Shown here: in pieces, positions 8,397-30,692 of the stretch
How positions within the stretch are numbered: position 1 is the stretch's first letter
How the letters are laid out: every line of letters begins with the position of its first letter
Notes under the pieces: generated by a model
What the model was told of the DNA's origin: nothing
Databases searched by the model: none
The model's input: the letters and a program-made list of their open reading frames with translations, nothing else
IMG/VR virus record: IMGVR_UViG_3300025572_000001
Coordinates: 1 to 64,000 of that record
Source of the DNA: a virus
Length of the DNA: 64,000 bases
Reading direction: 5' to 3' (one strand)
Position numbers and translations under genes: made by a program

Positions 8397-8417
8397 AGTT
8401 AATTGCAAGGTATCGTA

Positions 8418-8750
8418 ATGCTGACAGTGATGTCGTTTGGGTTCAAATTTGGGACGCCAAGAGCGGATCACGTGATTGACTGCCGAGATATCGTCAACCC
8501 TCACCGGCACCCGAAGTACAAGCCGCTTACCGGATTGAACAAGGCCGTACAGGATTACGTGATGGCTGACCGGAAGGCGCAAAATATCCTGCGGGAGGCG
8601 TCCGAGCTTTATTTGAAGGATGGGAAGATCGTGGCTTTCGGGTGCCTCGGTGGTCGCCATCGTTCCGTTGCTCTTGCCGAGAAATTCGCCGCCCTGGCTA
8701 CTGAAAGGGGGCTCACTGTGCGGGTGATTCACCGAGAACTTTCCGCTTGA
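8418..8750 (+). CDS. RapZ (YhbJ) C-terminal-domain-like protein, stand-alone
   Basis: MSFGFKFGTPRADHVIDCRDIVNPH..KPLTGL..VAFGCLGGRHRSVALAE parallels E. coli RapZ VSFGFKYGIP..DVRFLPNPH..RPMTGLD..IGCTGGKHRSVYIAE (memory). The N-terminal P-loop domain is absent. Confidence 0.75.
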   Translation: MLTVMSFGFKFGTPRADHVIDCRDIVNPHRHPKYKPLTGLNKAVQDYVMADRKAQNILREASELYLKDGKIVAFGCLGGRHRSVALAEKFAALATERGLTVRVIHRELSA

Positions 8751-8803
8751 TTCGGCAGTATCGGGTGAGAAAGTCGAGGTGTAGAACAAATATTGGTGAG
8801 GCA

Positions 8804-9943: not shown

Positions 9944-9981
9944 ACTTTTACCTCTGGACAGACTAGAACCGCATGGTAATT

Positions 9982-9995
9982 TGCAATTAATTGCA
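9982..9995. repeat. exact 14-bp palindrome TGCAATTAATTGCA
   Basis: Intergenic, 26 nt upstream of ATG 10022. Confidence 0.95.
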
Positions 9996-10021
9996 ATAGC
10001 ATGACACGGAGGTTGTAATCC

Positions 10022-12030: not shown

Positions 12031-12031
12031 T

Positions 12032-13528: not shown

Positions 13529-14565
13529 TGGAAAAGCCGGAAATCGCAGTGTTGCGACGATTCACACCTGGGATCAGCGTGACTCTTATCGCAGATGAGT
13601 TCACGCGATACTTCAGGGAGAAAGGCCACAAGGTCGTTGAAATAGACACAAAGGACAGAGGCTTCGATTTCAGTCCGTGCCACAAACGGCATGTTCTTTC
13701 ATTGGACGAAGCGGCTCTTCCCGACATGTTGGCTCGAACCCTATACACCTTCCCGAGGCGGGTGGTTTCTCTATGGGTCAACAATTGGGAGGAAATCTCC
13801 CTGATTCAGCAGATGAGCTACCTCAGCTGTTTCATGAAGCCCAAGGTGAACAGCGCCACGGTAGTCCATGTAAGTCATTCGCATTACACGGACAGGATCA
13901 TCAAGGACTTCGCAAGAAAGCATCTGGCTCCCTCGGTCACGAGGGGCCTCGAAAGCCGGATGAAGGTCAATCTGTTCGGGATTGGCAGTGAGTTCCAGTC
14001 AAGACATCAGAACGACCCTGACAAGCTGATCGTACCGTACAACCGTGTGAACCAGTCGCAGAAGAACATTCAGTTGCACGTGGAGGTAACGCGGCAGTAC
14101 CTGGCGATGGAGGCGAGAAGGGGTCGCAAGCCGACCGTCGATTTCTTCTACTCCGCGAAGTTTGCGCCGGATCGTAAGGCGTATGACGTGGGCGGGGATG
14201 TCTACACCTACATCCCGCAGTACGAGCGGCAGAAGTTCGTGGAGGCGATCCCGAATTACGGCATGTTCTTGTCCACGTCGCTGTTTGAGAGCTTCGGTAT
14301 CTACTACCTAGAACTGCTAGCAAGCGGCGTGGTCGGGGTGTTCCTCGACAAACCTTGGGTACGTCAGCTGCTGCCGAACTACCGGTTCATTGCGCCCAAG
14401 GGCGATCTCGCTGGGCTGATGTCGTGGGTGCGGGAGAATTACGAAGAGGCTTCCGCTTATGTCCACGATGAGGTCATCCCGTTCATTCGGGAGACCTATT
14501 CGTTTGAGCGTTTCTGCGCCGACCTCCTGAAGGAAGTGGTTGGTGCTGATGAGCATGGAGGTTGA
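13528..14565 (+). CDS. GT-B (GT1/GT4-like) glycosyltransferase
   Basis: MFLSTSLFESFGIYYLELLASGVVGV matches the GT4 motif S-x-x-E-x-FG-x-x-x-x-E-A-x-A-x-G. Confidence 0.6.
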   Translation: MEKPEIAVLRRFTPGISVTLIADEFTRYFREKGHKVVEIDTKDRGFDFSPCHKRHVLSLDEAALPDMLARTLYTFPRRVVSLWVNNWEEISLIQQMSYLSCFMKPKVNSATVVHVSHSHYTDRIIKDFARKHLAPSVTRGLESRMKVNLFGIGSEFQSRHQNDPDKLIVPYNRVNQSQKNIQLHVEVTRQYLAMEARRGRKPTVDFFYSAKFAPDRKAYDVGGDVYTYIPQYERQKFVEAIPNYGMFLSTSLFESFGIYYLELLASGVVGVFLDKPWVRQLLPNYRFIAPKGDLAGLMSWVRENYEEASAYVHDEVIPFIRETYSFERFCADLLKEVVGADEHGG

Positions 14566-14566
14566 T

Positions 14567-15346
14567 GTGAACATTGTCATTTATGGGAAGGGTGTCACAG
14601 GCTTTGCCACGGGCACTATGCTGGAGAACGCAGGTTGTGCAGTTTTCTACAACGACCCGCCCAAGGGCATTCATGTGTCGGCAGGTGTTGAGCCTGACTG
14701 GGTTTTCATCTGTGTCCCGACCCCGACTGGGGACCTGAGTTACGTCCGAGCCGCTGCGCGTGACGCGGCGAAGAAGTACGAGGGGGTGCCGATTGTGATC
14801 CGCTCCACGGTTCCGCCTGGGACGCATGACATCCTGTGCAAGGATAACCCGCAGGCGGACTTCGTGATGATGCCGGAGTTCCTGCGTGAGAAGACAGCGG
14901 TCGAGGACGCCCTCCGCAAGGATCGTGCGGTGTTCGCTGCACCAAATGTCTATATTGCCTCGCGCTTCTACCGGTTCCTGCTCGACGTTGGGTTCACGGG
15001 CATTCAGGAGGTATCTGTCGCAGAGGCTGAGCTGATCAAGTTCCTGACGAACGGCCTCATCGCCGTGAAGGTGGCTTTCGCCAACGTTATATACTCGCTG
15101 GCCCAGGCGACCGGAGCGGACTACCAGACGCTGCTTTCGCTTCTGGAGGCGGATGGCCGGTTCGGCATGTATGGCCTGAAGGTGCCTGGTGATCACGGCC
15201 TTGGTTACGCCGGAATGTGCCTCCCGAAAGACATGGGGTGGCTGAAGCTGGCGCTCGAACAGTACGGCATCGACCTCGGTGCGGATGTGATTCAGGGCAT
15301 TCAGGACTACAACACTGAGCTTCGTGCGCGGCAGCACTGCAATTAA
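14567..15346 (+). CDS. UDP-glucose/GDP-mannose 6-dehydrogenase-like protein, short form lacking the C-terminal UDP-binding domain
   Basis: VIYGKGVTGFATG Rossmann motif. AELIKFLTNGLIAVKVAFANVIYSLAQATGADY central-domain block. Catalytic-Cys block GYAGMCLPKD. GTG 14567 lies 5 nt after GGAGG. About 259 aa. Confidence 0.72.
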   Translation: MNIVIYGKGVTGFATGTMLENAGCAVFYNDPPKGIHVSAGVEPDWVFICVPTPTGDLSYVRAAARDAAKKYEGVPIVIRSTVPPGTHDILCKDNPQADFVMMPEFLREKTAVEDALRKDRAVFAAPNVYIASRFYRFLLDVGFTGIQEVSVAEAELIKFLTNGLIAVKVAFANVIYSLAQATGADYQTLLSLLEADGRFGMYGLKVPGDHGLGYAGMCLPKDMGWLKLALEQYGIDLGADVIQGIQDYNTELRARQHCN

Positions 15347-15363: not shown

Positions 15364-15813
15364 GTGATAGCGAGCGGACAGCTTTTGCGAGAACTCCAGC
15401 CGATCAAGCCGTTCTGTGAGCGGACCAAGTTCAACGGGATGACCTACGGCGTTGGTCCGGCTGGTTATGACGTTCGCATTGACCAGAATTTGACGCTGAT
15501 TCCCGGCGACTTCTCACTCGCCTCCACCATGGAAGAGTTCGACATGCCCGACACCCTGTTGGGCATAGTCCATGACAAGAGCACGTGGGCTCGCCTGGGT
15601 CTGGCTGTCCAGAACACCGTGATTGAACCTGGTTGGAAAGGGTTCCTGACGTTGGAGCTCACGAACCACGGGAAGAACTTGATCCGTATCGAGAAGGGTA
15701 CGCCGATTGCCCAGATCATCTTCCACTTCACCGACAGGCCGGTGGAGCACCCTTACGATGGCAAGTATCAGCATCAGGCGAGAGGGCCGCAGCCAGCCAT
15801 TCTGGAGCGGTAA
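15364..15813 (+). CDS. dcd: dCTP deaminase / dUTPase-superfamily protein
   Basis: GPAGYDVRI and HDKSTWARLGLAVQNTVIEPGWKGFLTLELTNHG match Dcd-family blocks (memory). Confidence 0.75.
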   Translation: MIASGQLLRELQPIKPFCERTKFNGMTYGVGPAGYDVRIDQNLTLIPGDFSLASTMEEFDMPDTLLGIVHDKSTWARLGLAVQNTVIEPGWKGFLTLELTNHGKNLIRIEKGTPIAQIIFHFTDRPVEHPYDGKYQHQARGPQPAILER

Positions 15814-16840: not shown

Positions 16841-17436
16841 AGCTGAAGGTCACTGGTCGAGCATTCAAAAATCTGAAAAGCCTCGGTCAGGACCGTATGG
16901 CCGAGATCGACAGTCGTTTGCTGGCAGGAGAACCTGCCAGCGTCATAGTCAACATCATCCACAATGAATGGGGTAAGCTGAAGAGCGTCAAGCCGCAGAC
17001 CCTCAAAAAGATGCTGGAGCGGTACAGGGAAACCGAGCTCCGCGAGAAGACCATCGAACGGATCGCAAACGCCCAACGCGGGACCAATCTCTCCGTGATC
17101 CAGAAGCGTCTGAACGCCATGGAAGAGTTGGAGCAGATGGCCCGCATCCAGTACGGGCGCATTCAGAAGCTTCTCATGCAGGAAGAGAAGATGCCTGCCG
17201 GTATCGTGAATAAGCAGGTAAATCCCGAAATGCGCCTGTTCAAGGAAATGATCGTGGAGCTGGGCAAGCTTCAGCTTGAAACGGGTGTCCTCGCCAGGGC
17301 TCCGAAGACGATCAAGGGTTCTATGGTTGGGCCTGGTGGGGAGATTCAGGAGTTCGAGTGGACCGAAGAACAGAGCAAGATGCTCAGCGAGCTTGAGGAG
17401 CTGTTGAATCGAGATGAAAGCGCCGCAGCTGTCTAA
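16837..17436 (+). CDS. putative terminase small subunit
   Basis: Called by position: 199 aa directly upstream of and overlapping the large terminase gene. No motif was recognised. Confidence 0.45.
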   Translation: MKLKVTGRAFKNLKSLGQDRMAEIDSRLLAGEPASVIVNIIHNEWGKLKSVKPQTLKKMLERYRETELREKTIERIANAQRGTNLSVIQKRLNAMEELEQMARIQYGRIQKLLMQEEKMPAGIVNKQVNPEMRLFKEMIVELGKLQLETGVLARAPKTIKGSMVGPGGEIQEFEWTEEQSKMLSELEELLNRDESAAAV

Positions 17437-19330
17437 GCACCCGCTGAACATTGCGTTCGACTTGTGTGCGAACCTCGGGTTCATGGGCGAGATCATCTGG
17501 AAGGTGGGCAAGGGTATTCGGGACCTGGACGAACGTCTCGAATACCTACGCTACGCGCTGAAGTGGATTGAGACCAAGGCCAAGGACGAAATGTACAAGG
17601 TGCCTCCGGTCGATTTCCGCACGTTCGTGGAGAGCGAGCACCTTCTGAACAAGCCAACGAGCCAGCCTGGTTCGCTGTACCCGGAGGTGCTGAAGTGCGG
17701 CATAGAGCTCAACTCCGGCAAGTACGTCGAGGCGGTGCTTACTGGGGCTATCGGTGTCGGGAAGACCCACCTCGGCGTCTACACCCAGGCGTACCAGCTC
17801 TATGTCCTGACGTGCATGGAAAACCCCCATGCCACGTTCGACCTCGACCCGGCGTCGGCTATCACCATCATATTTCAGTCGATCAACAAGGATTTGGCTG
17901 CGGAGGTTGGTTATGCCCCATTTCGGGCTCTGATTGATGACAGCCCGTATTTCCAGCAGTATGCCCCCTACGATCAGGGTGTGAAGAGCGAAATGCGGTT
18001 CATCAACCACCGCATCACCGTAAAGCCGGTTACCGGTGCCGAGTCCGGTGCAATCGGTCAGAACGTCATCGGCGGCATCATTGACGAGCTTAACTTCATG
18101 GCCGTGGTCGAGAACTCGAAAGCCAGCCATGATGGTGGGACCTATGATCAGGCCGTGAAGATTTACAACACGCTGGCACGACGCCGTGAGTCCCGCTTCA
18201 TGAAGCTTGGCCAGTTGCCAGGGATGCTCTGCCTGAGTTCGTCCAGAAATTACCCCGGACAGTTTACGGACAAGAAGGAGGCCGAGGCTCGCGAGCAGAT
18301 TCGTCGCCAGGGCTACACGACCATCTACGTCTATGACAAGCGCAGGTGGGAGATTAAGCCTGACGAGTATTGCGGGAAGATGTTCTATGTCTTCAAGGGG
18401 GACGCAACCCGCAAGCCTCGCATTCTGGAAGATGACGAGGAGGTTCCGCCGCAGGATCGCCACCTGGTGATGCCGATTCCGATTGAGCATCGCCATGCGT
18501 TCGAGGCCGATCTTCTTCCGGCTCTCCGAGACATCGCCGGTGTAGCCACGATGGCCCTGCACCCGTTCATCCTGGACACGGATGCCATTTCGGCTTGCTT
18601 TGGGACAGTGCAATCAATTGCATCGCGAGATGATTGCGACTTCAGGGATACCAAGATCAAGGTGTTTCCGAAGCGGATCATGCACCCGCAGGAGCCCCGT
18701 TTTGCACATATCGACTTGGCTATCAGCAGAGACAGCGCGGGCGTGAGCATTGGGCACGTCCCTGGCTTCAAGGAAATGAAGCGCGGCGATACGGTTGAGT
18801 TCCTGCCGATCATCCAATTCGACATGATTCTCGAAGTCCGGCCTCCGCGTGGCGGGGAGATAGAGTTCGAGAACATCCGCAGACTGCTTTACACTTTGCG
18901 CGATACGATTGGTCTGCCAATCAAGTGGGTATCACTCGACAGCTTCCAATCGAAGGACATGATGCAGATTCTGGCGCGACAGGGCTTCATCACTGGGTAT
19001 CAGTCCATGGATAAGGACACCTACGCCTATGACGTGCTGAAGCAGGCCCTGTACGACAAGCGCATCATGGCTCCGGCCCATCCGAAGTGCCACAAGGAGC
19101 TTATTTCGCTGGAGTTCGACACGCAGAAGAACAAGGTCGATCACCCGGATAATGGCTCCAAGGACGTGGCGGACTCCGTGGCCGGTGTTGTCACTGGGCT
19201 GACGCTACGGCGTGAAATCTGGGTTCGCCATCGCATCCCGATGCGGATGATTCCGCAGTCTGTTCTGGAAGGTCGATCCAAGCACAAGGGAGACATCACG
19301 TCGAAGGAACGGGAGTTCGCTTATGTCTAG
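17414..19330 (+). CDS. terminase large subunit
   Basis: Walker A GAIGVGKTH and Walker B-like GGIIDELNF. 638 aa with a nuclease-sized C-terminal half, in the packaging-gene position. Confidence 0.88.
   Translation: MKAPQLSKHPLNIAFDLCANLGFMGEIIWKVGKGIRDLDERLEYLRYALKWIETKAKDEMYKVPPVDFRTFVESEHLLNKPTSQPGSLYPEVLKCGIELNSGKYVEAVLTGAIGVGKTHLGVYTQAYQLYVLTCMENPHATFDLDPASAITIIFQSINKDLAAEVGYAPFRALIDDSPYFQQYAPYDQGVKSEMRFINHRITVKPVTGAESGAIGQNVIGGIIDELNFMAVVENSKASHDGGTYDQAVKIYNTLARRRESRFMKLGQLPGMLCLSSSRNYPGQFTDKKEAEAREQIRRQGYTTIYVYDKRRWEIKPDEYCGKMFYVFKGDATRKPRILEDDEEVPPQDRHLVMPIPIEHRHAFEADLLPALRDIAGVATMALHPFILDTDAISACFGTVQSIASRDDCDFRDTKIKVFPKRIMHPQEPRFAHIDLAISRDSAGVSIGHVPGFKEMKRGDTVEFLPIIQFDMILEVRPPRGGEIEFENIRRLLYTLRDTIGLPIKWVSLDSFQSKDMMQILARQGFITGYQSMDKDTYAYDVLKQALYDKRIMAPAHPKCHKELISLEFDTQKNKVDHPDNGSKDVADSVAGVVTGLTLRREIWVRHRIPMRMIPQSVLEGRSKHKGDITSKEREFAYV
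18609..18622. repeat. 1-mismatch palindrome copy TGCAATcAATTGCA
   Basis: Intragenic, within terminase large. Confidence 0.9.
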
Positions 19331-20068: not shown

Positions 20069-22027
20069 GTGGCAATCAAGATTTTCAGATTTTCGGCAAA
20101 TCATTTTGATTGGGAAAGCACCGATGAGGCGCTGACCAAGAAGACTTTGGGCGGCAAGGGAGCCGCCCTCGTTAAGATGGCTCAGGCCGGTATGCCGGTC
20201 CCGCCTGGCTTTACCATCACGACTGACACTTGCAACGAGTTCCGGCTCCTCAAGGAGACCCAGACCGAGGAAGTCGTCAACAAGTGGTTCGACAAGTTGA
20301 TGGACGAAGTAAACATGAACATGAAGTGGCTGGCCGACCAGTTCGGGTACACGCCTCTGGTGTCAGTCCGGTCTGGGGCCCCCGTATCCATGCCGGGAAT
20401 GATGGATACGATCCTGAACGTGGGGCTGACCTACGACAACCTGCCGGAGTGGGAGAAGCGTCTGGGCAAGCGGGCGGCCATGGACAGCATGAGACGGCTG
20501 ATCCAGATGCTGGGCAGCACGGCCTACGGAGTTCCGCACGAGGTGTTCGAGTTCCAGCTTGCCAAACACAAGAAGGAGGTGGGGGTCGAGAGTGACACTG
20601 ACCTGACGGCTGACGATCTGGAGTTCATAAGCCAGCAGTATCTCAAGGCGTTCTTCGCCAACAAGGGCTTCGATTTTCCGATCAACGACTCCGAGGCACA
20701 GCTACGAGCGGCGGTCAAGGCAGTGTTCGACAGCTGGATGAATCCTAGGGCAATCGAATACCGCAAGCTGAACAACATTCCGGAAGATATGGGCACTGCC
20801 GTCAATGTGCAGGCCATGGTGTTCGGGAATATGGGGGATGACTCGGGCACTGGGGTGCTGTTCACGCGGGACCCTTCGACCGGGCACGATGAAATCATGG
20901 GCGAGTTCCTGCAGAACGCGCAGGGCGAGGACGTGGTGGCAGGGATCAGGACCCCGCGCCCACTAAAAGAGATGGAATCCCTCGGGGGAGCATGGGTGGA
21001 TGTAGCCAACGAAATCCTGATGATCTGCGAGAAGCTGGAAGAAATGTACAAGGACATGGTGGACGTTGAGTTCACCGTCCAGCAGGGAACGCTATTCATC
21101 CTCCAGTCTCGCGTGGGTAAGCGGTCGGCCAAGGCGGCGTTCAGGATTGCAACCGATCTGGTGGAAGAAGGCGTGATCACCGTCGAACAGGCTCTCAAGC
21201 GGGTCACCAAGGACCAGTACAAGGCGGTTCGTCGGCCCCGCATCGACCCATCGTTCAAGGAGAAGCCCAACGTGGTCGGGCTCCCGGCCTGCCCCGGTGT
21301 GGTGAGCGGGAAGCCGGTGTTCTCGGCAGAGGATGCAGTTAATTGCAAAGAGCCCTGCATCCTGATCACGCATGAGACGACGCCCGACGATATCAAGGGA
21401 ATGAATGCCGCCGTGGGCATCCTGACCCAGACGGGCGGGGCGACCAGCCACGCTGCCGTAGTGGCGCGGGCCATGGACAAGCCTTGCGTTGTGGGATGCA
21501 CCGATCTGGATATCAGCTTCCTGAAAAGCAAGTCGATCAAGTCTGCGTTCAATCGGGTGACCATTGACGGTTCAACCGGGAACGTATGGTTCGACATTGA
21601 GGTCCCGGTGGTGGACGATTCGTCCGATCCGGCTGTGCGGAAGATTGTGGAATACTGCCTTGAGGCGCTGGACGTGCATGAGTCCGTATCAGTGCCACAG
21701 GGGGCCGGGGCACCCAAGCATGTGATCCACGTGGCACATTGGTGGGGCTCCGAGGAGGTACTGGTTAGCGTCTTGGATGAGCTTGAGCAGATCGGCTCTT
21801 TCGAGAATGTCATTCTGGACGTGACCTCGCCAAGGGCACTGATGCCGAGCAGTGATTTTGATCTGTACGACTGCTTCGGGCACTCGGAGCCGAGTTTCTC
21901 CCCTCGAATTGGCGAGGAATTGAAGAAGCGAGGCAACAAGCTGAAAGAGCTGGTCACCACGCATTTTGGGTTCGGCCCGAAGGTCATGCCAGCGGATTAC
22001 GCGGTCTTTAAGATGCTCAGCCAGTAA
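20069..22027 (+). CDS. pyruvate-phosphate-dikinase-like enzyme: ATP-grasp nucleotide-binding and phosphohistidine swivel domains, no PEP/pyruvate TIM barrel
   Basis: Collinear with the PPDK N-terminus: LGGKGAALVKMAQAGMPVPPGF, LVSVRSGAPVSMPGMMDTILNVGL, TAVNVQAMVFGN, GEFLQNAQGEDVVAGIRTP, and the swivel-domain motif GGATSHAAVVARAMDKPCVVG. It ends ~130 aa later at 652 aa, whereas bona fide PPDKs have roughly 870-880 aa. Confidence 0.88.
   Translation: MAIKIFRFSANHFDWESTDEALTKKTLGGKGAALVKMAQAGMPVPPGFTITTDTCNEFRLLKETQTEEVVNKWFDKLMDEVNMNMKWLADQFGYTPLVSVRSGAPVSMPGMMDTILNVGLTYDNLPEWEKRLGKRAAMDSMRRLIQMLGSTAYGVPHEVFEFQLAKHKKEVGVESDTDLTADDLEFISQQYLKAFFANKGFDFPINDSEAQLRAAVKAVFDSWMNPRAIEYRKLNNIPEDMGTAVNVQAMVFGNMGDDSGTGVLFTRDPSTGHDEIMGEFLQNAQGEDVVAGIRTPRPLKEMESLGGAWVDVANEILMICEKLEEMYKDMVDVEFTVQQGTLFILQSRVGKRSAKAAFRIATDLVEEGVITVEQALKRVTKDQYKAVRRPRIDPSFKEKPNVVGLPACPGVVSGKPVFSAEDAVNCKEPCILITHETTPDDIKGMNAAVGILTQTGGATSHAAVVARAMDKPCVVGCTDLDISFLKSKSIKSAFNRVTIDGSTGNVWFDIEVPVVDDSSDPAVRKIVEYCLEALDVHESVSVPQGAGAPKHVIHVAHWWGSEEVLVSVLDELEQIGSFENVILDVTSPRALMPSSDFDLYDCFGHSEPSFSPRIGEELKKRGNKLKELVTTHFGFGPKVMPADYAVFKMLSQ
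21334..21347. repeat. 1-mismatch palindrome copy TGCAgTTAATTGCA
   Basis: Intragenic; encodes DAVNCK, the same peptide as the copy at 12664. Confidence 0.9.
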
Positions 22028-22062: not shown

Positions 22063-22350
22063 ATGAGCCTGGTACTTGGTCTGAAGCAGGGTGACGATTT
22101 TTGGGTTGGCGACAAGCAGGTAGTCGTCACGAGAATCGAGGACGCCCGCCGTTTCTGGGTAAAGGTCGAAGATAACGACAAGGAATTTGAGGTCACGGAT
22201 ACCTACGCCACGGAGATCATGGATAACGTGTTCGTATCAGCCGGAAACTACTACAAGTACGGTCTGATCAGGATTGCCATAGAGGCTCCACGTGACATTA
22301 AGATTCTCAGAGGCGACCGGTATCGTGAGGAGTATCTGGGAGTATCCTGA
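22063..22350 (+). CDS. CsrA/RsmA-like RNA-binding protein with a ~37-aa internal insertion
   Basis: The N-terminal LVLGLKQGDDFWVGDKQVVVTRI aligns with CsrA [24 protein letters not shown]. The C-terminal IRIAIEAPRDIKILRGDRY aligns with VRIGVNAPKEVSVHREEIY (from memory). Confidence 0.6.
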   Translation: MSLVLGLKQGDDFWVGDKQVVVTRIEDARRFWVKVEDNDKEFEVTDTYATEIMDNVFVSAGNYYKYGLIRIAIEAPRDIKILRGDRYREEYLGVS

Positions 22351-22553
22351 TGGGGTTTCGTGACTACGAAATCACTGATGAAGCTGTGCGGAAGGCCAGA
22401 CTGATAGGCATCGGCGGAGACGTGAGAAAGCGTCTCGCCCGCATGGCCAAACGGGCCGCTCCATATACGAGCGAGTTCGGTAACAAGAGGTTTGAGAATT
22501 TCGTCCTGCGGATAGTTGATGGCCGCTTGGTCGATGTAACTAGGCTGGATTGA
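22350..22553 (+). CDS. hypothetical protein
   Basis: 67-aa ORF. Its ATG overlaps the previous stop (TGATG). Confidence 0.5.
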   Translation: MGFRDYEITDEAVRKARLIGIGGDVRKRLARMAKRAAPYTSEFGNKRFENFVLRIVDGRLVDVTRLD

Positions 22554-22570: not shown

Positions 22571-23068
22571 ATGACTGACGATATGATTCCTGGAGCTAAC
22601 GGCTCTCTTACGTTGAATCTTGGTTGGAAAGGGGGGTTCTACACGCTGACGGTTTTTGGCGGCCCATATGATCGTTTCCCGAATGAGACAAACGATTATG
22701 GGGTGTGCGTCAGGGCTGAGAGGGCTCCGAAGAACAAGCTTCATATGCACGTGCCAATCATGGATTTCAGCATCCCGATTGACGATGAGAACGTGAGACT
22801 GGCGTTGCGTGAGGCTTTCCGTGCCGCGATTGATGGCAAGCGAGTCTATGTCGGCTGCATGGGAGGGTATGGTCGCACTGGCCTCTTCCTGGCTCTCATG
22901 GCAAAGGTAGCCGGTGTAGAGGACCCTGTTAGGTACGTGCGTCGGTATTATTCGACACGAGCGGTAGAGACGGTTTTGCAGGAGGAGTACGTCGAGATGT
23001 TTGACGTGACTCAGGTCAGGCAAGAGGTTCGGAAGTACGCCTGGAGAAAGCGGTTTCGGTTCGCTTAA
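22571..23068 (+). CDS. dual-specificity/PTP-like phosphatase, paralog 1
   Basis: CX5R P-loop VGCMGGYGRTG (Cys 22856..22858, Arg 22874..22876). Upstream general-acid-like PIMDFSIP. ATG 22571 follows AAGGAG. Confidence 0.72.
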   Translation: MTDDMIPGANGSLTLNLGWKGGFYTLTVFGGPYDRFPNETNDYGVCVRAERAPKNKLHMHVPIMDFSIPIDDENVRLALREAFRAAIDGKRVYVGCMGGYGRTGLFLALMAKVAGVEDPVRYVRRYYSTRAVETVLQEEYVEMFDVTQVRQEVRKYAWRKRFRFA

Positions 23069-23078
23069 ACCTAGGTGG

Positions 23079-23092
23079 TGCAATTAATTGCA
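23079..23092. repeat. exact 14-bp palindrome TGCAATTAATTGCA (16-bp palindrome with flanks, GTGCA..TGCAC)
   Basis: Intergenic, 61 nt upstream of ATG 23154. Confidence 0.95.
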
Positions 23093-23153
23093 CTTGATCT
23101 TGGTTGGTCTTGTGAGAAGATCAGCCAAGATCATAAACTCCACGGAGGGAACG

Positions 23154-24248
23154 ATGGCTCTCACAGACCCGATAGACACGTTGGCTTATCACAATTCTCG
23201 CGTTCTCTGCATGAAGCGGGATATGAGCCACGTACCGTGCAAGAACGTAGCTAAACAGCTGGAACAGTATCAGGCAGGTCATTCACAATCTGATAATGAC
23301 GGTTGGACTGTGCCTGAGACGCAAGCCCTGTGGTTCTACGGGATGAACCACGGAGTGTCACTCATTTCGAGCAAATTCGATCCGCTTGAGCCGTTACCCG
23401 AGTGGGCACACAAATTTGTTGCTGCGTACCATGATGAGCTGACGCCGAGGGCGGTCCGGGCGTTCTACTACCTGCTGCTGATCTGCACCCGAGAGGCGCG
23501 GCACAACAAGTCGCTGGTCAAGGATTACAAGAAGATTGCCGATCAGTTCGGCAAGTCCGTTGCCGATTTCTTCATGGGCATTTCAGGTGGTGAAAGTAGC
23601 ATCCATCAGAAGTTCGTATCCAAACCGCCGGAAGCGACCATTGGGCAGTACGTGGATGCCATCCGCTGGCAGTTCTATAACTCGAAGTGGAACTCAGGTT
23701 ATGGCGGGCCCGCGTGGGGTAAGGTGACCGACTGCCTGTGCCGGTTCGTGAACGGCGAGTTCTCCGCGGAGATGATGCTCGACACGATCTGGACGCTCGC
23801 ACACAACAACGGGCCGATCTTCAACAAGGGCATCTTCTATAAGATGTACAACTACAACGACATCATCCGAATCCTGGATGTGCAGAGGTCTGGTCAGATT
23901 CCGCAGGCGATCCTCTCTGATGATAAGGTTCAGAAGTACAGCCCTGATGCTTTGAAGTCGTGGATGATTGAGCTCAGGAACAGGTTCCCCAATGCGATTG
24001 GGAACTATGTGGATTGGTATCTGGTGGAATCCCTCGGTGCTGTAGGCTCGTACTGGTCCGAGAAGAATGACCAAGTAGCTAAGCATGGGATATCGCCGGT
24101 TGCCAGCGAGATTGAAAAGAAGAAGCAGGAGGAGGAGCTCAAGAAGAAGGAGCTCGAAAAGAAGAAGCAGGAGGAGTTCCTGAAAACCAATTTCCAGGTA
24201 ATGCCTGGTGTGTTCGTCAAGAAGATCGAAATGGTTCGAGCCGCTTAA
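23154..24248 (+). CDS. hypothetical protein (364 aa) flanked by the two phosphatase paralogs
   Basis: ATG 23154 lies 5 nt after CACGGAGG. Conserved-looking blocks TREARHNKS, GYGGPAWGK and LAHNNGPIFNKG. Lys/Glu-rich coiled C-terminus. No family was recognised. Confidence 0.65.
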   Translation: MALTDPIDTLAYHNSRVLCMKRDMSHVPCKNVAKQLEQYQAGHSQSDNDGWTVPETQALWFYGMNHGVSLISSKFDPLEPLPEWAHKFVAAYHDELTPRAVRAFYYLLLICTREARHNKSLVKDYKKIADQFGKSVADFFMGISGGESSIHQKFVSKPPEATIGQYVDAIRWQFYNSKWNSGYGGPAWGKVTDCLCRFVNGEFSAEMMLDTIWTLAHNNGPIFNKGIFYKMYNYNDIIRILDVQRSGQIPQAILSDDKVQKYSPDALKSWMIELRNRFPNAIGNYVDWYLVESLGAVGSYWSEKNDQVAKHGISPVASEIEKKKQEEELKKKELEKKKQEEFLKTNFQVMPGVFVKKIEMVRAA

Positions 24249-24264
24249 CGTCACGGAGGACAAT

Positions 24265-24918
24265 GTGTCTAAGAAGCTATGGGGCAAAGATAAGTGGGAT
24301 TCGGAATTGTTTGATGGGTGTAATACTGGATCGGGCAAGGGCTTCACAGGCTATAAGTGCTATACGACCCATAAGCCCCTAAAGCTGCCTGGTACTGACT
24401 TTGTAATTTACGGGGGCTCGTGTGGGAGCCCCGTTGTAACCGATGCAGATGTCTATATCGGCTTCGACAAGCATTCGATGTCGTTCACAGATAGGCATTG
24501 GCCGTGGAAAGAGGGTGAGGAAATCCTGTTCCCTGTTACGGACATGTCGGTGCCGAGCAGCGTGGGTGATTACAAGAAGCTGGTCTCCTGGACGTTGGAG
24601 AAGTTGCAGGAGGGTAAGAAGGTCCATTGCGGGTGCATCGGTGGTCACGGTCGGACAGGTATGTTCCTCGCAGCCCTTGTTTGCGAGTGCGGGGAGGCTG
24701 ATGCGATCACCTATGTTCGGGAGAACTATTGCCATAAGGCGGTTGAGTCCAAGTCTCAGGTAGACTTCCTGGTGAAGCATTTCGGTTCAAAACCAGCGAG
24801 TGCAACGAAGGGGTTTGTTTCCTCCACGAAGGGGTATTCGCCCAAATCCTACAAGCCCGTTGCGGCACCAAAGAAGTTCATTCCGCTTCCGAGTAATGGG
24901 CATATCTGGGGCAATTAA
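24265..24918 (+). CDS. dual-specificity/PTP-like phosphatase, paralog 2
   Basis: CX5R P-loop HCGCIGGHGRTG (Cys 24634..24636, Arg 24652..24654). FPVTDMSVP parallels PIMDFSIP of paralog 1. GTG 24265 lies 5 nt after CACGGAGG. Confidence 0.72.
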   Translation: MSKKLWGKDKWDSELFDGCNTGSGKGFTGYKCYTTHKPLKLPGTDFVIYGGSCGSPVVTDADVYIGFDKHSMSFTDRHWPWKEGEEILFPVTDMSVPSSVGDYKKLVSWTLEKLQEGKKVHCGCIGGHGRTGMFLAALVCECGEADAITYVRENYCHKAVESKSQVDFLVKHFGSKPASATKGFVSSTKGYSPKSYKPVAAPKKFIPLPSNGHIWGN

Positions 24919-24990: not shown

Positions 24991-25791
24991 GTGGCTATCA
25001 AGATTGTAAGTTTCACCGGAAAGACGCTGCTACAGAAGGTCGGTGTTTCAGAGGATACGCTGAACTCACTGGCAGCTGCGGGGGTCAAGCCCGCTATCAT
25101 CAGCGGTAACCTGATTCTGCAGAACCAGATAACTCTTAAACCCTATGCATCTGTTCAGATTGGTTGGGACAAGATCAGCCAGCTAAAGGCAAACAAGCTG
25201 GCACCGACCGATCTTCAGATACTGAAGGCCAACATAGAGGCGGCGTGTAAGGACGCCCTGTATGCAGCGGGGGTGGCGGCATCCACCGTAGCTTCTACTA
25301 AAGCCGAGAAGTTCAAGGCTGGATTTGAAGCCGGTGTCATCTCCAAGCTTCCTCCGCTGAAGTTGCCGTCGAAGGAAAAGCCGAAGGCACTCGCGGAGGC
25401 TTCTGGGTGGCCTATGTTCGATCTGGCCAAGCTGAAAACGGCACCCACGGTCAAGCTGCGGGACGCCACGATGATGTATCAGCCCGTCATGGGCACCTCG
25501 ACTGGCTCCCGTTACTACCTGGTCGCGGCAAATAAGGACGTGCGGATAGCGGCTCGATACATTGACAAGGGTGGGCAGCTTTCCCTGCGGATAGAGGGCC
25601 CGAATTGGTCGCAGTACACGGATAAGATTCAGGCGTGTGGCATCACCAAGATTGAGTCCGACTATGCCAGCATTCATTTGAATTGCGGGGGAGACTTCGT
25701 TCTTGCGAACAAGACTCTGGGGGCTTTGCTTCTTGGTCTGGGCATCCAGTTCGAGACTCCGCTGCCTGATCTGAAGGTGATTGCAAAATGA
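24991..25791 (+). CDS. hypothetical protein, N-terminus MAIKIV
   Basis: GTG 24991 lies 5 nt after CACGGAGG. 266 aa. Confidence 0.6.
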   Translation: MAIKIVSFTGKTLLQKVGVSEDTLNSLAAAGVKPAIISGNLILQNQITLKPYASVQIGWDKISQLKANKLAPTDLQILKANIEAACKDALYAAGVAASTVASTKAEKFKAGFEAGVISKLPPLKLPSKEKPKALAEASGWPMFDLAKLKTAPTVKLRDATMMYQPVMGTSTGSRYYLVAANKDVRIAARYIDKGGQLSLRIEGPNWSQYTDKIQACGITKIESDYASIHLNCGGDFVLANKTLGALLLGLGIQFETPLPDLKVIAK

Positions 25792-26408: not shown

Positions 26409-28796
26409 ATGGGTTCCCTGAAAATATGGACTACGGCAGACACACCACTTCTCAAACAGACCTTCGGACAGAGCCTGCGTAAGTTCAGGCCGGACATCCC
26501 CCCGCATCAATTCATTCCGTTGGACTTCAATGAAGAACCCCCCGTCCCTGATGAAGGAGGGGTTGTTCTTGTTTGCGGAGCAAAGCCTCTGAAGGCTCTG
26601 GAGGAAGCAGGAATCGCGCCGAAAAAGAGAACGGTCACATCAATGCGGGAGAACCCTATCCCGAGAAGTGGTGGGTATTATCTCGTGACGTTCGATCCGG
26701 CTGTTACCGGTTCAGAGCCAGAGAAGATGGACTTGATGGATTGGGATTTGCGTCTGGCCGTTCGGCTGATGAGGACAGGGAAGTTGGACCCCGAGGTCGG
26801 TAAGTACGTGTGGGTCAATGACTATCAGCCCATGATCGACTGGATCGAAGCCCAGTACGCAGAGACCGGCCAGCCGGTTGATGTGGCTTTGGACCTCGAA
26901 ACCATGGGATTTCATCCGTGGTATCCGGAGAAGGACATCGTTTCCATCAGCTTCACGGCTCGTCCTGGTACAGCGGAACTCTTGTATCTCGGGCCACAGG
27001 AGCACCCGATTGAGCTCAATCCGGACGTGCCGCTCTATGACCAGATCAAGTGGCTGATGACCTCACCGAAGGTGAAACTGAGAGGGGCGAACCTGAAATT
27101 CGACCTCGTGTGGATCGCTGAGAAGTGGGGCATCGAGTGCACGAACTTCAAGTTCGATATCTGCCTGGTCGGAAACCTTCTGAACGAAAACCGCTCAAAC
27201 GGCCTGAACACGCTGGCGAAAATCTACACGCCCATGGGCGGGTATGACGACTATCTGGAAAAGAAGTACGACAAGGGCAAGATGGAGCTCATCCCGCCGT
27301 CTGACCTTCTGACCTATGCTGGTGGTGACACGGATGCCTGTCATCAAGTGGCGGACCTTCTGAAGGATGAGCTTTTGGAGGATGAGCAGCTGACGCGGTT
27401 CTACTTGAAGATTTTGCATCCGGCTGCGAGGGCGTTTGAGAAGATCGAGCGTCGTGGGGTCCTGGTTGACGTTGAGAAGTATCATGCCCTGGCTGACGAG
27501 CTTCGGGAGGTGATCAAGGAAAGCCAGAACAAGGCAATGGAGCTCCTGCCGAACCGGATGCGGATCAAGTACAGGGAGAGGATCGAAGCCCAAATCCAGA
27601 AGGGCAAGAGCCCCCTGCTGCCGTCCATCCTGAAAGAATATTTCTTCACTCCGCATGGGCTGAACCTGAAACCCAAGGAGTTCACCGAGAAAACAGGTGA
27701 GCCGTCCATGACCAAGAGCCATTTGCGTCAGTTCGCTGACGTGCCGGAGGCAGCGGCCATGGTCGAGGCTCTGACCGAGATGGACTCGGCGGCAAAGACC
27801 CTGAGCACGTTCGTGGAAGGCTTCCTCGAACATTTGCGACCGGATGGGCGCATCCATCCGACCTACATGCTCTTCCATGGTGGTCTGTATGACGATGACA
27901 GCGAAGAGTCCGGCACGGTGACTGGACGGTTGTCGGCCAAGGACCCAGCGTTCCAAACCCTGCCCAAGAAGACGAAGTGGGCGAAGAAAATCCGCGCCTG
28001 TTATCCGGCTCCGCCTGGCAAGGTCGTCATGCAGTTGGACTACAGCCAGGGTGAGCTTCGCGTGGTGGCTTGTGTGGCGAACGAGAAGAACATGATCGCC
28101 GCCTACGAGGAGGGCAAGGACCTGCACGCGGTGACCGGGGCTCAGCTTGGTGGCGTGAGCTACGAGGAGTTCCTGAGCTGGAAGGGCTGCGAGGATGAAA
28201 AGCTCGCCAAGATGTTCGATGACCTGCGTTCCCGAGCCAAGGCCGGTAACTTCGGCCTGCTCTACGGTATGGGTGTCGAGGGCTTCCAGGCTTATGCGTG
28301 GGCGAACTACGGCCTCCGACTGACTTACGCGGAAGCGGAGAGGATCAGAACCGACTTCTTTGCTCTGTACCCCGGCCTTGTCGCCTACCACGAACGTCAG
28401 AGGGAGTTGGTGCGGTTCAGGGAAATGGTCCGTTCACCACTTGGACGAATACGTCATCTTCCGATGATTCGCAGTTGGGATAAGGCGGTGAAGGCCAAGG
28501 CCGAGAGGCAGGCGATAAATTCCCCAATCCAGTCTTGTCTTTCCGATATGATGTTGTGGGCCATCGCGCTCATTACGGACGCTTATCCGGAGATTGAAAT
28601 TGTAGGCATGATTCACGATGCAATGATCGCCTACGTTCCGGAAGAAAATGCTGCCGAATGGGCTTTACGGGCTCAGGAGGTAATGAGTAATCTCCCGTTT
28701 CATGAAGTTGGGTGGCAACCGCAACTCAAGTTTCCCGCTGATGCGGAAGCCGGGCCCACTCTGGCAGAACTGAAGCCGCTGAAATTCGATGCGTGA
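26409..28796 (+). CDS. family A DNA polymerase with 3'-5' exonuclease domain
   Basis: Exonuclease motifs DLETMG, NLKFDL and YAGGDTD. Polymerase motif A DYSQGELRV, motif B RSRAKAGNFGLLYGMG, motif C GMIHDAMI. About 150 aa of extra N-terminal sequence. Confidence 0.93.
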   Translation: MGSLKIWTTADTPLLKQTFGQSLRKFRPDIPPHQFIPLDFNEEPPVPDEGGVVLVCGAKPLKALEEAGIAPKKRTVTSMRENPIPRSGGYYLVTFDPAVTGSEPEKMDLMDWDLRLAVRLMRTGKLDPEVGKYVWVNDYQPMIDWIEAQYAETGQPVDVALDLETMGFHPWYPEKDIVSISFTARPGTAELLYLGPQEHPIELNPDVPLYDQIKWLMTSPKVKLRGANLKFDLVWIAEKWGIECTNFKFDICLVGNLLNENRSNGLNTLAKIYTPMGGYDDYLEKKYDKGKMELIPPSDLLTYAGGDTDACHQVADLLKDELLEDEQLTRFYLKILHPAARAFEKIERRGVLVDVEKYHALADELREVIKESQNKAMELLPNRMRIKYRERIEAQIQKGKSPLLPSILKEYFFTPHGLNLKPKEFTEKTGEPSMTKSHLRQFADVPEAAAMVEALTEMDSAAKTLSTFVEGFLEHLRPDGRIHPTYMLFHGGLYDDDSEESGTVTGRLSAKDPAFQTLPKKTKWAKKIRACYPAPPGKVVMQLDYSQGELRVVACVANEKNMIAAYEEGKDLHAVTGAQLGGVSYEEFLSWKGCEDEKLAKMFDDLRSRAKAGNFGLLYGMGVEGFQAYAWANYGLRLTYAEAERIRTDFFALYPGLVAYHERQRELVRFREMVRSPLGRIRHLPMIRSWDKAVKAKAERQAINSPIQSCLSDMMLWAIALITDAYPEIEIVGMIHDAMIAYVPEENAAEWALRAQEVMSNLPFHEVGWQPQLKFPADAEAGPTLAELKPLKFDA

Positions 28797-28859: not shown

Positions 28860-30692
28860 ATGTCGGAGACCAAGGATCAGGCAGAGAATACCACCCAGTC
28901 CGTCACCTTCCGCATGGTTGGATTTGGTGGCGGGGAGAAAACAGCCCTACAGAAGGCGGTTTGGGGCGAGGATGCGATTGGCCCGCAGGCCCTTGAGCCT
29001 GAAGATGAGTTCAAGCAGTTCTACGTCTCAAGCACGGATGACGCGAAAATTCTTCCCCCGCCGTATCCGCTTGATACGCTCGACCGGCTTTGTCAGGAGA
29101 ACAACACGCTGGCACCCTGTATTGAGGCGATGGTCACGAACGTCGATGGTACAGGGTATGACTTCACATCGGCTGATGATGTGGTAGAGGACAACAAGGA
29201 TGACGAGAAGATAAAGGCGCTCAGGGAGTTCTTTATGGAGCCCTGGCCCGGAGAGTCTTTCGTCACCATCCGGCAGAAGCTGCGGCGCGATCTTGAGCGG
29301 GTGGGGAATGCCTACCTGGAGGTCCTTCGTAACCCGAAGGATGAGATCGTCTTCATCCGGCATGTGTCTGCCAAGATGATCCGACTGGTGGAGCTGGGTG
29401 ATCCTGTAGCCACGGAAAAGAAGCTTATCCGTAATGGAAAAGAAGTCACGGTCACTGTGATGGAGCGTCACCGCCGTTACGCTCAGCTGGTGAACGGAAA
29501 GGCCCTGGTTTATTTCAAGGATTTCGGTGTTCCTCTCGATCTGGACAAGAACACAGGTAAGTGGGCTGACAAAGGTCAAAGGCTTCCCGCCAAGACCAGA
29601 GCCACCGAGATCATACATTTCACCTGTGTGCCCGACTCGAAGACGCCTTATGGCGTTCCTCGCTGGATCAGCCAACTCCCATCGGTGCTGGGCTCACGTA
29701 AGGCCGAGGAGTTCAATCTGGAGTTCTTCGACAACGGCGGTATCCCGCCCATCCTGATCATGCTCCAGGGTGGCATGTTGCAGGATGAAACCCGAAAGGC
29801 TCTTGAGCAAAAGACTTCCGGCCCTGCTTCCAAGCTTAACCGTGTGCAGATCATCGAGGTTGAGCCGGTTGGCGGTTCGCTTGACCACCCGACGCAGGCC
29901 AGAGTGACAGTCGAGCGGTTCGGCAGCGACCGCATGAACGATTCCATGTTCGAGAACTACGACGAAAAGTGCGAGTCTCGCATTCGTCGGGCGTTCCGAT
30001 TGCCTCCGATCTTCGTTGGTTCGGCTGAGAACTACAACTACGCCTCAGCCTATGTGTCCTGTACGCTGGCAGAAGCCCAGGTTTTCAAGCCTGAGCGGGA
30101 TGAGTTTGATGAGATCGTCAACATGCGTCTTCTCCCGGCTCTGGGGTACACGGGGTATAAGATGATCTCCAAGCCGCTGAACATCGAGGACGTTCAGACC
30201 AAACTCCAGGCTATTGAACTCTCGATGAACACCGGCGTCGTGGACATGAAGGATATTGTCTACGAGATCAACGAGGCGGCTGGCACCAACATCAAGGTCA
30301 CGGATGAGCCTCTGTACACGCTCAGTCAGCTTACCGTTGATGCGATGGGCAATGTCGTACCTGGTCGGATGAAGACCAAGCCGAATGGCCCCGTGAACGC
30401 CAACGGGGTTCCACAGAGGACTCCGGCCCCTAGCGAAAATGCAAAGAAGTCGGAAGACCTGACGGTCGTAGACCTGGCCAAGGAAGCCATGGAAGCCTTC
30501 CGTAACAGGGATTTTGCTTCCCTATCCAAGACGCTGCAATTAATTTCACGTCTGGATGAACGTGGGCAGCACGAGTTCCGAAAGGCTTGCGCGACCATGA
30601 GGTTCCTGGACGTGGAAAATGATCCGGATGGTCTTGGGGAGCTCCTGGGGTGCACCATGGAAGTCATGGCCCATGAGCATCACGCCCATTAA
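28860..30692 (+). CDS. portal protein
   Basis: 610 aa, directly upstream of the Mu F-like and protease genes. YGVPRWISQLPSV..FFDNGGIPP is reminiscent of PBSX/HK97-type portals (memory). Confidence 0.8.
   Translation: MSETKDQAENTTQSVTFRMVGFGGGEKTALQKAVWGEDAIGPQALEPEDEFKQFYVSSTDDAKILPPPYPLDTLDRLCQENNTLAPCIEAMVTNVDGTGYDFTSADDVVEDNKDDEKIKALREFFMEPWPGESFVTIRQKLRRDLERVGNAYLEVLRNPKDEIVFIRHVSAKMIRLVELGDPVATEKKLIRNGKEVTVTVMERHRRYAQLVNGKALVYFKDFGVPLDLDKNTGKWADKGQRLPAKTRATEIIHFTCVPDSKTPYGVPRWISQLPSVLGSRKAEEFNLEFFDNGGIPPILIMLQGGMLQDETRKALEQKTSGPASKLNRVQIIEVEPVGGSLDHPTQARVTVERFGSDRMNDSMFENYDEKCESRIRRAFRLPPIFVGSAENYNYASAYVSCTLAEAQVFKPERDEFDEIVNMRLLPALGYTGYKMISKPLNIEDVQTKLQAIELSMNTGVVDMKDIVYEINEAAGTNIKVTDEPLYTLSQLTVDAMGNVVPGRMKTKPNGPVNANGVPQRTPAPSENAKKSEDLTVVDLAKEAMEAFRNRDFASLSKTLQLISRLDERGQHEFRKACATMRFLDVENDPDGLGELLGCTMEVMAHEHHAH
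30535..30548. repeat. 1-mismatch palindrome copy TGCAATTAATTtCA
   Basis: Intragenic, near the portal 3' end. Confidence 0.9.

Follow-up and report, generated by a model that had tools for sequence, protein, structure and literature searches.

Which reaction could a phage carry out with a dikinase, two cysteine phosphatases, and a protein of no recognisable family that are encoded side by side? The question is raised by a 64,000-nucleotide stretch of viral DNA (positions 1 to 64,000 of IMG/VR record IMGVR_UViG_3300025572_000001, all of which is meant by "the window" in the following), in which the genes of two paralogous phosphatases, PTP1 and PTP2, bracket the gene of a 364-aa protein, designated X, downstream of the genes for a dikinase and a CsrA-like protein. 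The window covers about two thirds of a phage genome of ~92-100 kb, and all genes are located on the plus strand. Judged from sequence comparisons, the dikinase, X, and the phosphatases are likely to form one functional unit, namely a split dikinase with X as its acceptor half and with dedicated phosphatases, a model based on a dikinase-X fusion, on the strict co-occurrence of the genes, and on the missing barrel domain of the dikinase. For the whole proposal, in which this unit would act on phage DNA or nucleotide precursors, we estimate a probability of roughly 0.42. The components are the following.

20069 to 22027, plus strand: truncated dikinase related to pyruvate phosphate dikinase (PPDK), 652 aa, with the Pfam domains PPDK_N and PEP-utilizers
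22571 to 23068, plus strand: PTP1, predicted minimal cysteine phosphatase, 165 aa, ATG start, with the P-loop GCMGGxGRTG, the acid Asp in PIxDFSxP, and the Gln in AVETxxQ
23154 to 24248, plus strand: X, orphan protein modelled as all-alpha, 364 aa, ATG start, assigned to phrog_20946, the proposed acceptor or substrate domain of the dikinase
24265 to 24918, plus strand: PTP2, predicted cysteine phosphatase paralogous to PTP1, 217 aa, GTG start, with the P-loop GCIGGHGRTG, an N-terminal extension, and a basic C-terminal tail

The original prediction had named the two upstream genes dikinase-like and CsrA-like, and both names hold, with matches of the former to PPDK_N (7e-50, 170 bits) and PEP-utilizers (6.6e-25, 87 bits) and of the latter to CsrA (27.2 bits against a cut-off of 27). 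The dikinase is composed of an ATP-grasp domain (residues 25-297) followed by a swivelling phospho-His domain (427-504), which carries GGATSHAAVVAR and includes the GGATSHAAV motif; the catalytic TSH motif is kept in 65 of 70 loci. PPDKs of the PDB align to residues 21-513 only, with ~50% identity (E 1e-124 to 1e-126), and the match to TIGR01828 covers profile positions 9-538 of 865 and reaches 579 bits against a cut-off of 843. The protein also matches phrog_18609 (E 4.5e-158), and NCBIfam gives weak matches to Rph, PigC, and RedH. Its homologs have a length of 632-744 aa (two shorter outlier estimates among the 68 measured set aside), compared with ~870-915 aa for true PPDKs, and the ~340-aa phosphoenolpyruvate (PEP)/pyruvate TIM barrel, which is C-terminal in PPDK, is absent from all 68 homologs measured. 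Homology to PPDK ends near residue 513-549, and the tail of ~140 aa beyond it is less conserved than any other part of the protein. Having the ATP-grasp and the swivel His domain and lacking the TIM barrel, the phage "PPDK" is, by its domain content, not a member of the PPDK class. With these two domains and no barrel, the dikinase can probably charge its histidine from ATP, yet it lacks an acceptor site of its own. In a study of Vibrio phage J26, PEP was docked into a proposed small C-terminal "TIM barrel" of the phage PPDK (PMC12038007); the poor conservation of the tail argues against a functional PEP-binding barrel of this kind.

The linkage of the genes was compared in 73 loci from IMG/VR, in 7 genome loci, and in isolates. 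The order dikinase, (CsrA-like), PTP1, X, PTP2, Y (a conserved protein without family), family A DNA polymerase (PolA), and portal is fixed and holds from the phages of Rhodobacter, Rhizobium, and Stenotrophomonas to Vibrio phages at 30% identity, the latter having the same order with a single PTP. Among loci with sufficient flank, the dikinase gene is located 5' of X in 63 of 63 cases and PolA 3' of it in 67 of 68. This co-occurrence, together with the fusion in a sister lineage described below, bears out the functional tie between cassette and dikinase that had been postulated earlier. Median identities to the window are 49% for the dikinase, 40% for PTP1, 40% for X, and 51% for PTP2, which is on par with PolA (46%) and portal (47%), so that the cassette shows the conservation of a block of core genes. 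Since this conservation equals that of portal and DNA polymerase in phages of alpha-, beta-, and gamma-proteobacteria, the module probably does something essential for these phages. The nearest isolates, with only 65-68% nucleotide identity, are Rhodobacter phage RcZahn, the Rhizobium phages RHph_TM16 and Y1_11, and the Stenotrophomonas Delepquintaviruses DLP3, DLP5, and Summit.

In the sister lineage, dikinase and X are parts of one polypeptide. An ORF at positions 8255-10333 of locus L077 (692 aa) encodes an ATP-grasp domain, a His domain, and X, with a PTP gene directly 3'. Its N-terminal part is a reduced version of the ATP-grasp domain (32.8 bits with PPDK_N of Pfam; 5e-7 in BLASTP against the dikinase of the window), its middle part a PEP-utilizer-like His domain with STGSLHCHGVVLAKGYGKAYI, and its X part is recognised by hhalign with 94.8% probability (E 5e-8) and shows the motifs GEVRHW, GYGGKAWG, and HHNNAVFFNK; the complete protein matches both phrog_18609 and phrog_20946. 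The unit is flanked by genes for an SNF2 helicase and a Toprim-DnaB primase-helicase. Six proteins of the fusion family, all on separate contigs, are 42-100% identical and 667-699 aa long, and they keep the E-R-H, GG..W, and HNN..FNK residues of X. X thus forms the C-terminus of the fused dikinase, which is the place of the PEP/pyruvate barrel in PPDK.

X also occurs in other architectures. At locus L076, a 590-aa X-containing protein is followed by a PTP, and at locus L075 (= L086) an R2K ATP-grasp gene (L075 8746-9414) precedes the gene of a 912-aa X-containing protein with a PTP gene directly after it; the R2K-clade protein may be an alternative ATP-using partner of X that replaces the dikinase. 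The X core ([YF]GG[KP]AWG ... HNxGxxFxK ... LDxxR) is moreover found within multidomain phage proteins of 360-3,100 aa. Giant representatives are encoded at L074 9323-12850, L096 3393-12692, L122 6873-12773, and L101 4026-8543, and three copies of the core (L093, L101, and L103) are located on a single 212-kb jumbo-phage contig, IMGVR_UViG_3300037067_015211. Comparison of the giant proteins with Pfam and PHROGs revealed a PcfJ-like domain in one and KOW repeats in one, and nothing else. X may be an uncharacterised module that is widespread in polyvalent or giant proteins of phages.

In X itself, the motifs TREARHNKS, GYGGPAWGK, and LAHNNGP were confirmed, and the middle protein of the cassette, in which the original prediction had noted conserved-looking blocks but no familiar family, belongs by profile and structure searches to a conserved family which no database recognises. 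X matches phrog_20946 with an E value of 7.5e-72. A collection of 5.8 billion proteins contains 951 homologs, all of them without a functional name and without a Pfam domain, and at E<=1e-3 the family comprises 2417 clusters at 50% identity; a search of a representative library yielded, among the matches listed, only close full-length relatives and no new architectures. A search started from the Vibrio X found 5 proteins only. In 185,579 species genomes there are only 7 loci, which lie on contigs of ~60-96 kb in metagenome-assembled genomes or within larger bacterial contigs or chromosomes, in the latter case presumably as prophages. All 41 matches in isolate phages belong to the present lineage or to 80-kb Vibrio phages of the SIO-2/VHS1/SSP002 type. 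The family is essentially confined to phages and prophages.

A search for remote relatives of X gave no lead. No consistent match to Pfam was obtained for X or for all 123 members of its alignment, none was obtained to NCBIfam or PADLOC, and the X profile retrieved only noise from the PDB sequences (E >= 0.05). An AlphaFold (AF2) model built from the 123-sequence alignment reached a pLDDT of 93.8 and a pTM of 0.86, compared with an unusable single-sequence run at pLDDT 40. It predicts an all-alpha core (approximately residues 1-312) followed by a long helix and a β-hairpin. Foldseek found no fold match for this model in the PDB (best E 0.34, TM ~0.1) and in BFVD its own family alone (four full-length proteins and one 143-aa partial). 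Twenty-five residues are invariant (F61, Y62, N65, H66, Y92, Y106, E114, R116, H117, G184, G185, W188, G201, E206, D210, L215, H217, N218, K225, L241, D242, Q244, W288, V291, and G295). They include the blocks E114-x-R116-H117, a Gly-rich GYGGxAWG loop at the N-terminus of a helix, H217-N218, and D242-x-Q244, and in its sequence pattern this set is enzyme-like or ligand-site-like. The annotation "putative membrane protein" given to X in phages Summit and J26 was ruled out by the absence of a transmembrane or hydrophobic segment (maximum KD19 hydropathy 0.64) and by the soluble helical model. Readings of the ExxH and HN motifs as heme-oxygenase-like, di-iron, or HD-domain sites were dropped, as no fold match was found. 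The N-terminus of X (MALTDPxDTLAYHxSR) is invariant, and a C-terminal hairpin (VMPGxxVKKI...RAA) is conserved; together with the tail of PTP2 these elements are possible docking peptides for complex formation.

The two phosphatases had been proposed to be divergent paralogs of the PTP or dual-specificity phosphatase (DSP) fold, and profile matches, pairwise comparison, and retention of the catalytic residues all agree with this. PTP1 holds VYVGCMGGYGRTG, PIMDFSIP, and YVRRYYSTRAVETVLQ, and PTP2 holds HCGCIGGHGRTG, PVTDMSVP, and YVRENYCHKAVESKSQ; the CX5R(S/T) P-loops are VGCMGGYGRTG and CGCIGGHGRTG, respectively. With 35% identity over 80 aa in BLASTP (E 7e-18), the two are true paralogs, well above what a chance CX5R motif would give. 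A joint profile of both proteins matched 239 PDB sequences at E<=1, the top ones being ShufPTP (9e9l, E 5.3e-13), Tk-PTP (5z59), SsoPTP (2i6i), and DUSP23/VHZ (4erc), with E values from 5e-13 to 4e-6, and the aligned stretch includes the Asp of the acid loop, the P-loop, and AVETxEQ. The Pfam scores for PTP-SAK and Tc-R-P (26.8 and 26.5 bits for PTP1, 24.0 and 23.5 bits for PTP2) are slightly below the cut-off of 27, and phrog_17568 is matched by PTP1 (E 1e-24) and by PTP2 (E 1e-28).

The catalytic Cys and Arg are conserved among the homologs: the GCMGGxGRTG motif is present 5' of X in all 74 loci with sufficient flank and GCIGGHGRTG 3' of X in 71 of 73. D65, P69, and Q137 (PTP1 numbering) are invariant across PTP1, PTP2, and the PTPs of the sister lineages, as are the Cys and Arg, and the general-acid Asp, ~30 residues before the P-loop, and the downstream Gln, the residue that positions water in this superfamily, align with the corresponding blocks of Tk-PTP and ShufPTP. 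In the PTP mechanism, a conserved Asp together with this Gln argues for genuine hydrolytic phosphatases. By residue conservation, PTP1 and PTP2 are SsoPTP/VHZ-like cysteine phosphatases with their catalytic residues kept, and they are predicted to be catalytically competent. They share with SsoPTP (2I6I), Tk-PTP (5Z59), ShufPTP (9E9L), and human DUSP23/VHZ (4ERC) a PTP domain of ~150 aa with the arrangement D...CxGGxGR(S/T)G...AVETxEQ, and differ from these small archaeal and atypical PTPs in forming a paralogous pair and in the specific features of PTP2, that is, the N-terminal extension, a P-loop His that is invariant, and a tail with a conserved IWG motif at the C-terminus (P..x..IWG). This tail (window positions 24800-24918; homologs at L001, L002, and L004) is basic and of low complexity and terminates in P[LM]xxxxxIWG, in some cases in IFK or IWK.

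The mechanism proposed for the module comprises four steps. The PPDK-like enzyme would load its swivelling histidine from ATP, probably together with Pi, as suggested by its ~50% identity to PPDK. The His~P domain would then dock on X, the substitute for the barrel, and phosphorylate a substrate bound there, a step suggested by the fusion, by the co-occurrence, and by the lack of the barrel. One or two PTPs with differentiated P-loops would hydrolyse the phosphate of the product or of a later intermediate, so that phosphorylation would be either transient (activating or "cryptic") or reversible. In the last step, which is the weakest link, the target would be phage DNA or nucleotide precursors and the module would feed the heavy DNA modification of this lineage.

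This design belongs with the members of the dikinase family that have a swapped acceptor domain. PPDK (1KBL from Clostridium symbiosum, 1VBG from maize) shares with the phage dikinase the ATP-grasp domain and the swivel phospho-His domain with GGxTSHAAVVAR, but in the phage protein a short variable tail stands in the place of the TIM barrel and the proposed acceptor is the separate, orphan-fold X. Rifampicin phosphotransferase, PigC/RedH, phenylphosphate synthase, and GWD likewise combine an ATP-grasp domain and a phospho-His carrier with a family-specific acceptor domain; their acceptors are of other folds and part of the same chain, whereas the phage acceptor is usually encoded by a separate gene and always accompanied by cysteine phosphatases. 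What sets the phage system apart is the separate orphan-fold acceptor, the obligatory minimal cysteine phosphatases, and its status as a core module of a phage lineage.

The assignment of DNA or nucleotides as target is tentative, its chances being somewhat short of even. It is suggested by the position of the cassette before PolA in 67 of 68 loci and the replication-gene context of the fusion lineage, by a dCTP deaminase gene directly 5' of the dikinase gene in Vibrio phage V-YDF132, and by the KOW repeats fused to one X core. A known parallel is thymidine hypermodification in phages, which Lee and co-workers reportedly described in 2018 as proceeding via a 5-hmdU DNA kinase (5-HMUDK) and aGPT-Pplase. 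Common features are phosphorylation that activates a base substituent, phage genes near replication genes, and heavily modified phage DNA; in that pathway, however, the kinase is a P-loop enzyme and not a dikinase, and PTPs are not part of the known pathways. Pfam searches of the cassette and the scanned upstream genes of the window detected no 5-HMUDK, aGPT-Pplase, or ThyA-type hydroxymethylase, only a ThyX-like and a generic P-loop kinase-like protein. Also in favour of this target, the DNA of DLP5 was cut by only 4 of 36 endonucleases and that of DLP3 by 0 of 15; the two papers name no modification and do not mention 7-deazaguanine genes (PMC5834331, PMC7326821). In the literature searched, no paper was found in which a dikinase modifies phage DNA or counteracts defence, and these genes are not involved in the pathway of the Thanatos pentose-cytosine paper or in the jumbo-phage survey.

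Several points weigh against a split dikinase that acts on DNA or nucleotides. As the fold of X is unmatched, its substrate cannot be read from the structure. The X core is also present in giant proteins without dikinase or PTP genes nearby, so that X may serve for binding in a generic way. If the kinase and the phosphatases acted on the same group, they would form a futile cycle unless time or position kept them apart, a separation that is assumed here; encoding both in one operon is sensible where the phosphate is added transiently, to activate or protect, or where it acts as a reversible switch. The adjacency to PolA may just reflect the frozen gene order of the lineage, and the modification of DLP3 and DLP5 could stem from the sugar-nucleotide and glycosyltransferase genes present. 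Resistance at GC-only sites (SmaI, ApaI) would require modification of G or C, for which no precursor enzyme is evident. Finally, in sequence the P-loops of both PTPs are similar to those of protein phosphatases.

This last feature leads to the alternative of a protein phosphorelay or host take-over, in which the His~P of the dikinase would be transferred to X or to an X-bound protein and the PTPs would reset the relay or erase host kinase signalling. We regard it as unlikely. The P-loops (CxGGxGRTG) and the best PDB matches (Tk-PTP, SsoPTP, VHZ, KAP-like) are indeed those of protein phosphatases, X has the invariant histidines H66, H117, and H217, and the fusion to KOW repeats suggests a tie to the transcription or translation machinery. 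In addition, the long X protein adjoins an R2K ATP-grasp protein, a clade predicted to modify proteins (PMC7824862). However, the conservation of X, with ~25 invariant residues including Gly-rich loops, is that of an enzyme and not that of a carrier; no target is evident, and the PADLOC defence models gave no match. The closest precedent, the transfer from enzyme I to HPr in the phosphotransferase system, shares the delivery of phosphate from a PEP-utilizer swivel His to a separate partner protein, but the phage donor would use ATP via an ATP-grasp domain, and X is far larger than HPr, the fold search having found no similarity to HPr or EIN.

Another alternative is reversible glucan phosphorylation, with host glycogen as the substrate. 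The original prediction, which allowed for a glycan, a nucleic acid, or a host protein as substrate, had likened the pairing of dikinase and phosphatases to GWD with SEX4/LSF2 and laforin in plants and animals. The dikinase and X would phosphorylate the glucan, the two position-specific DSPs would dephosphorylate it, the CsrA-like protein would shut down glycogen synthesis, and the carbon mobilised would serve phage growth. The logic of one dikinase and two differentiated DSP-fold paralogs is common to the phage module and to GWD/PWD with SEX4, LSF2, and laforin, a CsrA-like regulator of carbon storage has its gene between those of the dikinase and the PTPs, the invariant aromatic residues F61, Y62, Y92, Y106, W188, and W288 of X (and the nearly invariant W213) could stack on sugars, and the His domain of the dikinase has a weak Pfam match to GWD1_pHisD (E 0.043). 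The analogy nevertheless has no support so far. Pfam searches at E<=0.1 of the dikinase, PTP1, X, and PTP2 found no CBM20, CBM45, or CBM48 and no other carbohydrate-binding domain. In GWD, the His domain is located N-terminal to the nucleotide-binding domain, whereas the order of ATP-grasp and His domain in the phage protein is that of PPDK. Instead of glycan enzymes, the conserved genes next to the module encode PolA, helicases, and dCTP deaminase, with replication genes adjoining it in two independent lineages, and conservation at the level of core genes is unusual for a metabolic accessory gene. Bacterial glycogen is soluble, and no requirement for its phosphorylation is known. The glycogen explanation is accordingly rated as distinctly improbable.

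Highly improbable is a role in the remodelling of RNA or DNA ends for repair or 5'-end chemistry, with dikinase and X phosphorylating termini and the PTPs acting as RNA 5'-tri- or diphosphatases or 3'-phosphatases like baculovirus BVP, PIR1, or the Swiss-army-knife DSPs. The Pfam models that fit the two PTPs best are PTP-SAK, which stands for the Swiss-army-knife DSP of RNA repair, and Tc-R-P; relatives encode a DNA ligase and RNase H, and the gene context is that of replication; against this, the scores are under the gathering threshold, the P-loops lack HCTHGxNRTG, which is the signature of RNA triphosphatases, and the cassette contains no RNA ligase or polynucleotide kinase as partner. That the dikinase is a bona fide PPDK and an auxiliary metabolic gene interconverting pyruvate and PEP, with the PTPs and X as unrelated neighbours, is extremely improbable, as the annotations and papers in its favour (including the PEP docking in PMC12038007) and the ~50% identity of the N-terminal and His domains to true PPDK are outweighed by the absent barrel, the 579 instead of 843 bits, the stop of homology at ~513-549, and the least-conserved tail, and as this explanation leaves the co-occurrence of X and PTPs and the dikinase-X fusion unexplained.

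The proposed split dikinase with X and the PTPs is embedded in a region bounded by the genes for terminase (17414-19330) and portal (28860-30692), which contains the following further genes.

22063 to 22350, plus strand: CsrA-like small RNA-binding protein with an insertion, 95 aa, recognised by the Pfam model CsrA just above its cut-off
22350 to 22553, plus strand: small basic protein of 67 aa without family, present in closer relatives only
24991 to 25791, plus strand: Y, conserved protein without family, 266 aa, placed by tblastn between PTP2 and PolA
between Y (24991-25791) and PolA (26409-28796), plus strand: two small ORFs, placed by gene order
26409 to 28796, plus strand: predicted family A DNA polymerase (PolA), conserved neighbour 3' of the cassette, given as context and not claimed as part of the mechanism

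Of 69 related loci, 47 have a detected CsrA-like gene in the interval from the dikinase to PTP1. The 67-aa ORF has tblastn matches in 26 loci and no family match in Pfam and PHROG profile searches. Y was detected by tblastn in 58 of 69 loci, every time in the interval between PTP2 and PolA; its conserved core is formed by the C-terminal ~115 aa (LYQPVxGTSxGSRY...AAR), and searches of Pfam and, with the Y profile, of the PDB sequences gave no match. The counterpart of PolA is annotated as DNA polymerase in RcZahn, Summit, TM16, and J26.

All motifs and coordinates reported earlier for the cassette were found in place, and the start sites chosen then are backed by their Shine-Dalgarno context. 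The sequence CACGGAGG is located 6-7 nt upstream of the dikinase (20055), X (23141), PTP2 (24252), and Y (24978) genes, and the CsrA-like gene and PTP1 have CACGGAGT and AAGGAGTGG, respectively. The idea of a ribosome-binding context shared by the cassette and the dikinase gene is correct for the dikinase, X, and PTP2 and fails as a mark of the cassette: the 8-mer CACGGAGG occurs 10 times in the window (3.1 expected; none of 100 shuffles reaches 10) and also precedes unrelated genes at 7868 and 10005, which indicates a general flavour of ribosome-binding sites. Its occurrence near starts inside and outside the cassette may mark a class of co-regulated or highly translated genes. A scan for promoters and terminators from 19.3 to 29 kb gave nothing above shuffles, which is compatible with a single transcription unit, and the isoelectric points of the proteins were not discriminating.

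The upstream part of the window contains further genes of nucleotide and sugar metabolism. A P-loop kinase-like gene (4955-5539; AAA_18, weak match to dNMP kinases) overlaps the start of a long ThyX-like gene (5497-6474, 325 aa) with the signature THRVFSRNAASSR in place of RHR...S..R, and a dCTP deaminase/dUTPase is encoded at 15364-15813; these might be a pyrimidine-nucleotide set feeding a modified base. Two NAD-dependent epimerase/dehydratase genes and a gene similar to UDP-glucose/GDP-mannose dehydrogenases (10022-12030, 14540-15346) flank two large ORFs without family (12032-13528 and 13528-14565). The region 10022-15346 could encode a nucleotide-sugar pathway, possibly from UDP-GlcA to a pentose, which could serve DNA glycosylation or host envelope modification. 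WcaG, WecE, a PIG-L deacetylase, and a glycosyltransferase are encoded by relatives of this phage. The early region also includes genes for a GNAT acetyltransferase (7135-7581) and a DUF5983-domain protein (7878-8396), and further upstream a large serine recombinase (3055-4752; Resolvase, Recombinase, and Zn ribbon) suggests a temperate lifestyle. DLP5, which belongs to the same lineage, has been reported to persist as a phagemid.

In public records, PTP2, X, Y, and the dikinase carry misleading names in DLP5 and DLP3 (gp141-143), phrog_17568, Summit (gp145), and J26 (ORF101 and ORF102). The label "thymidylate synthase" for PTP2 in DLP5 and phrog_17568 was rejected on the basis of the PTP motifs, the PHROG label being an error inherited from DLP5, and "pyruvate decarboxylase" for the Y homolog of Vibrio phage J26 was rejected as unsupported. 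Another name given to Y is "transporter", and the truncated dikinase goes under PPDK. In studies of Vibrio, Stenotrophomonas, and Nitrosospira phages, the phage PPDK is repeatedly described as an auxiliary metabolic gene serving central carbon metabolism, and in the literature searched no paper treats the cassette as a unit or doubts the PPDK assignment.

Once its substrate is known, X would give the dikinase enzyme family a new acceptor domain, minimal PTPs of this type from phages would have a first function assigned to them, and a new DNA modification or nucleotide pathway might come to light. In its most specific form, which is speculative and rather unlikely, the proposal states that X is a new phospho-acceptor domain which phosphorylates a group of DNA or of a deoxynucleotide via an ATP-driven phospho-His carrier and that the PTPs remove the activating or cryptic phosphate. 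If this were true, the module would represent a new route to DNA hypermodification that explains restriction resistance of the DLP3/DLP5 type, and the X core would be a DNA- or nucleotide-targeting module reused in the giant proteins of jumbo phages.

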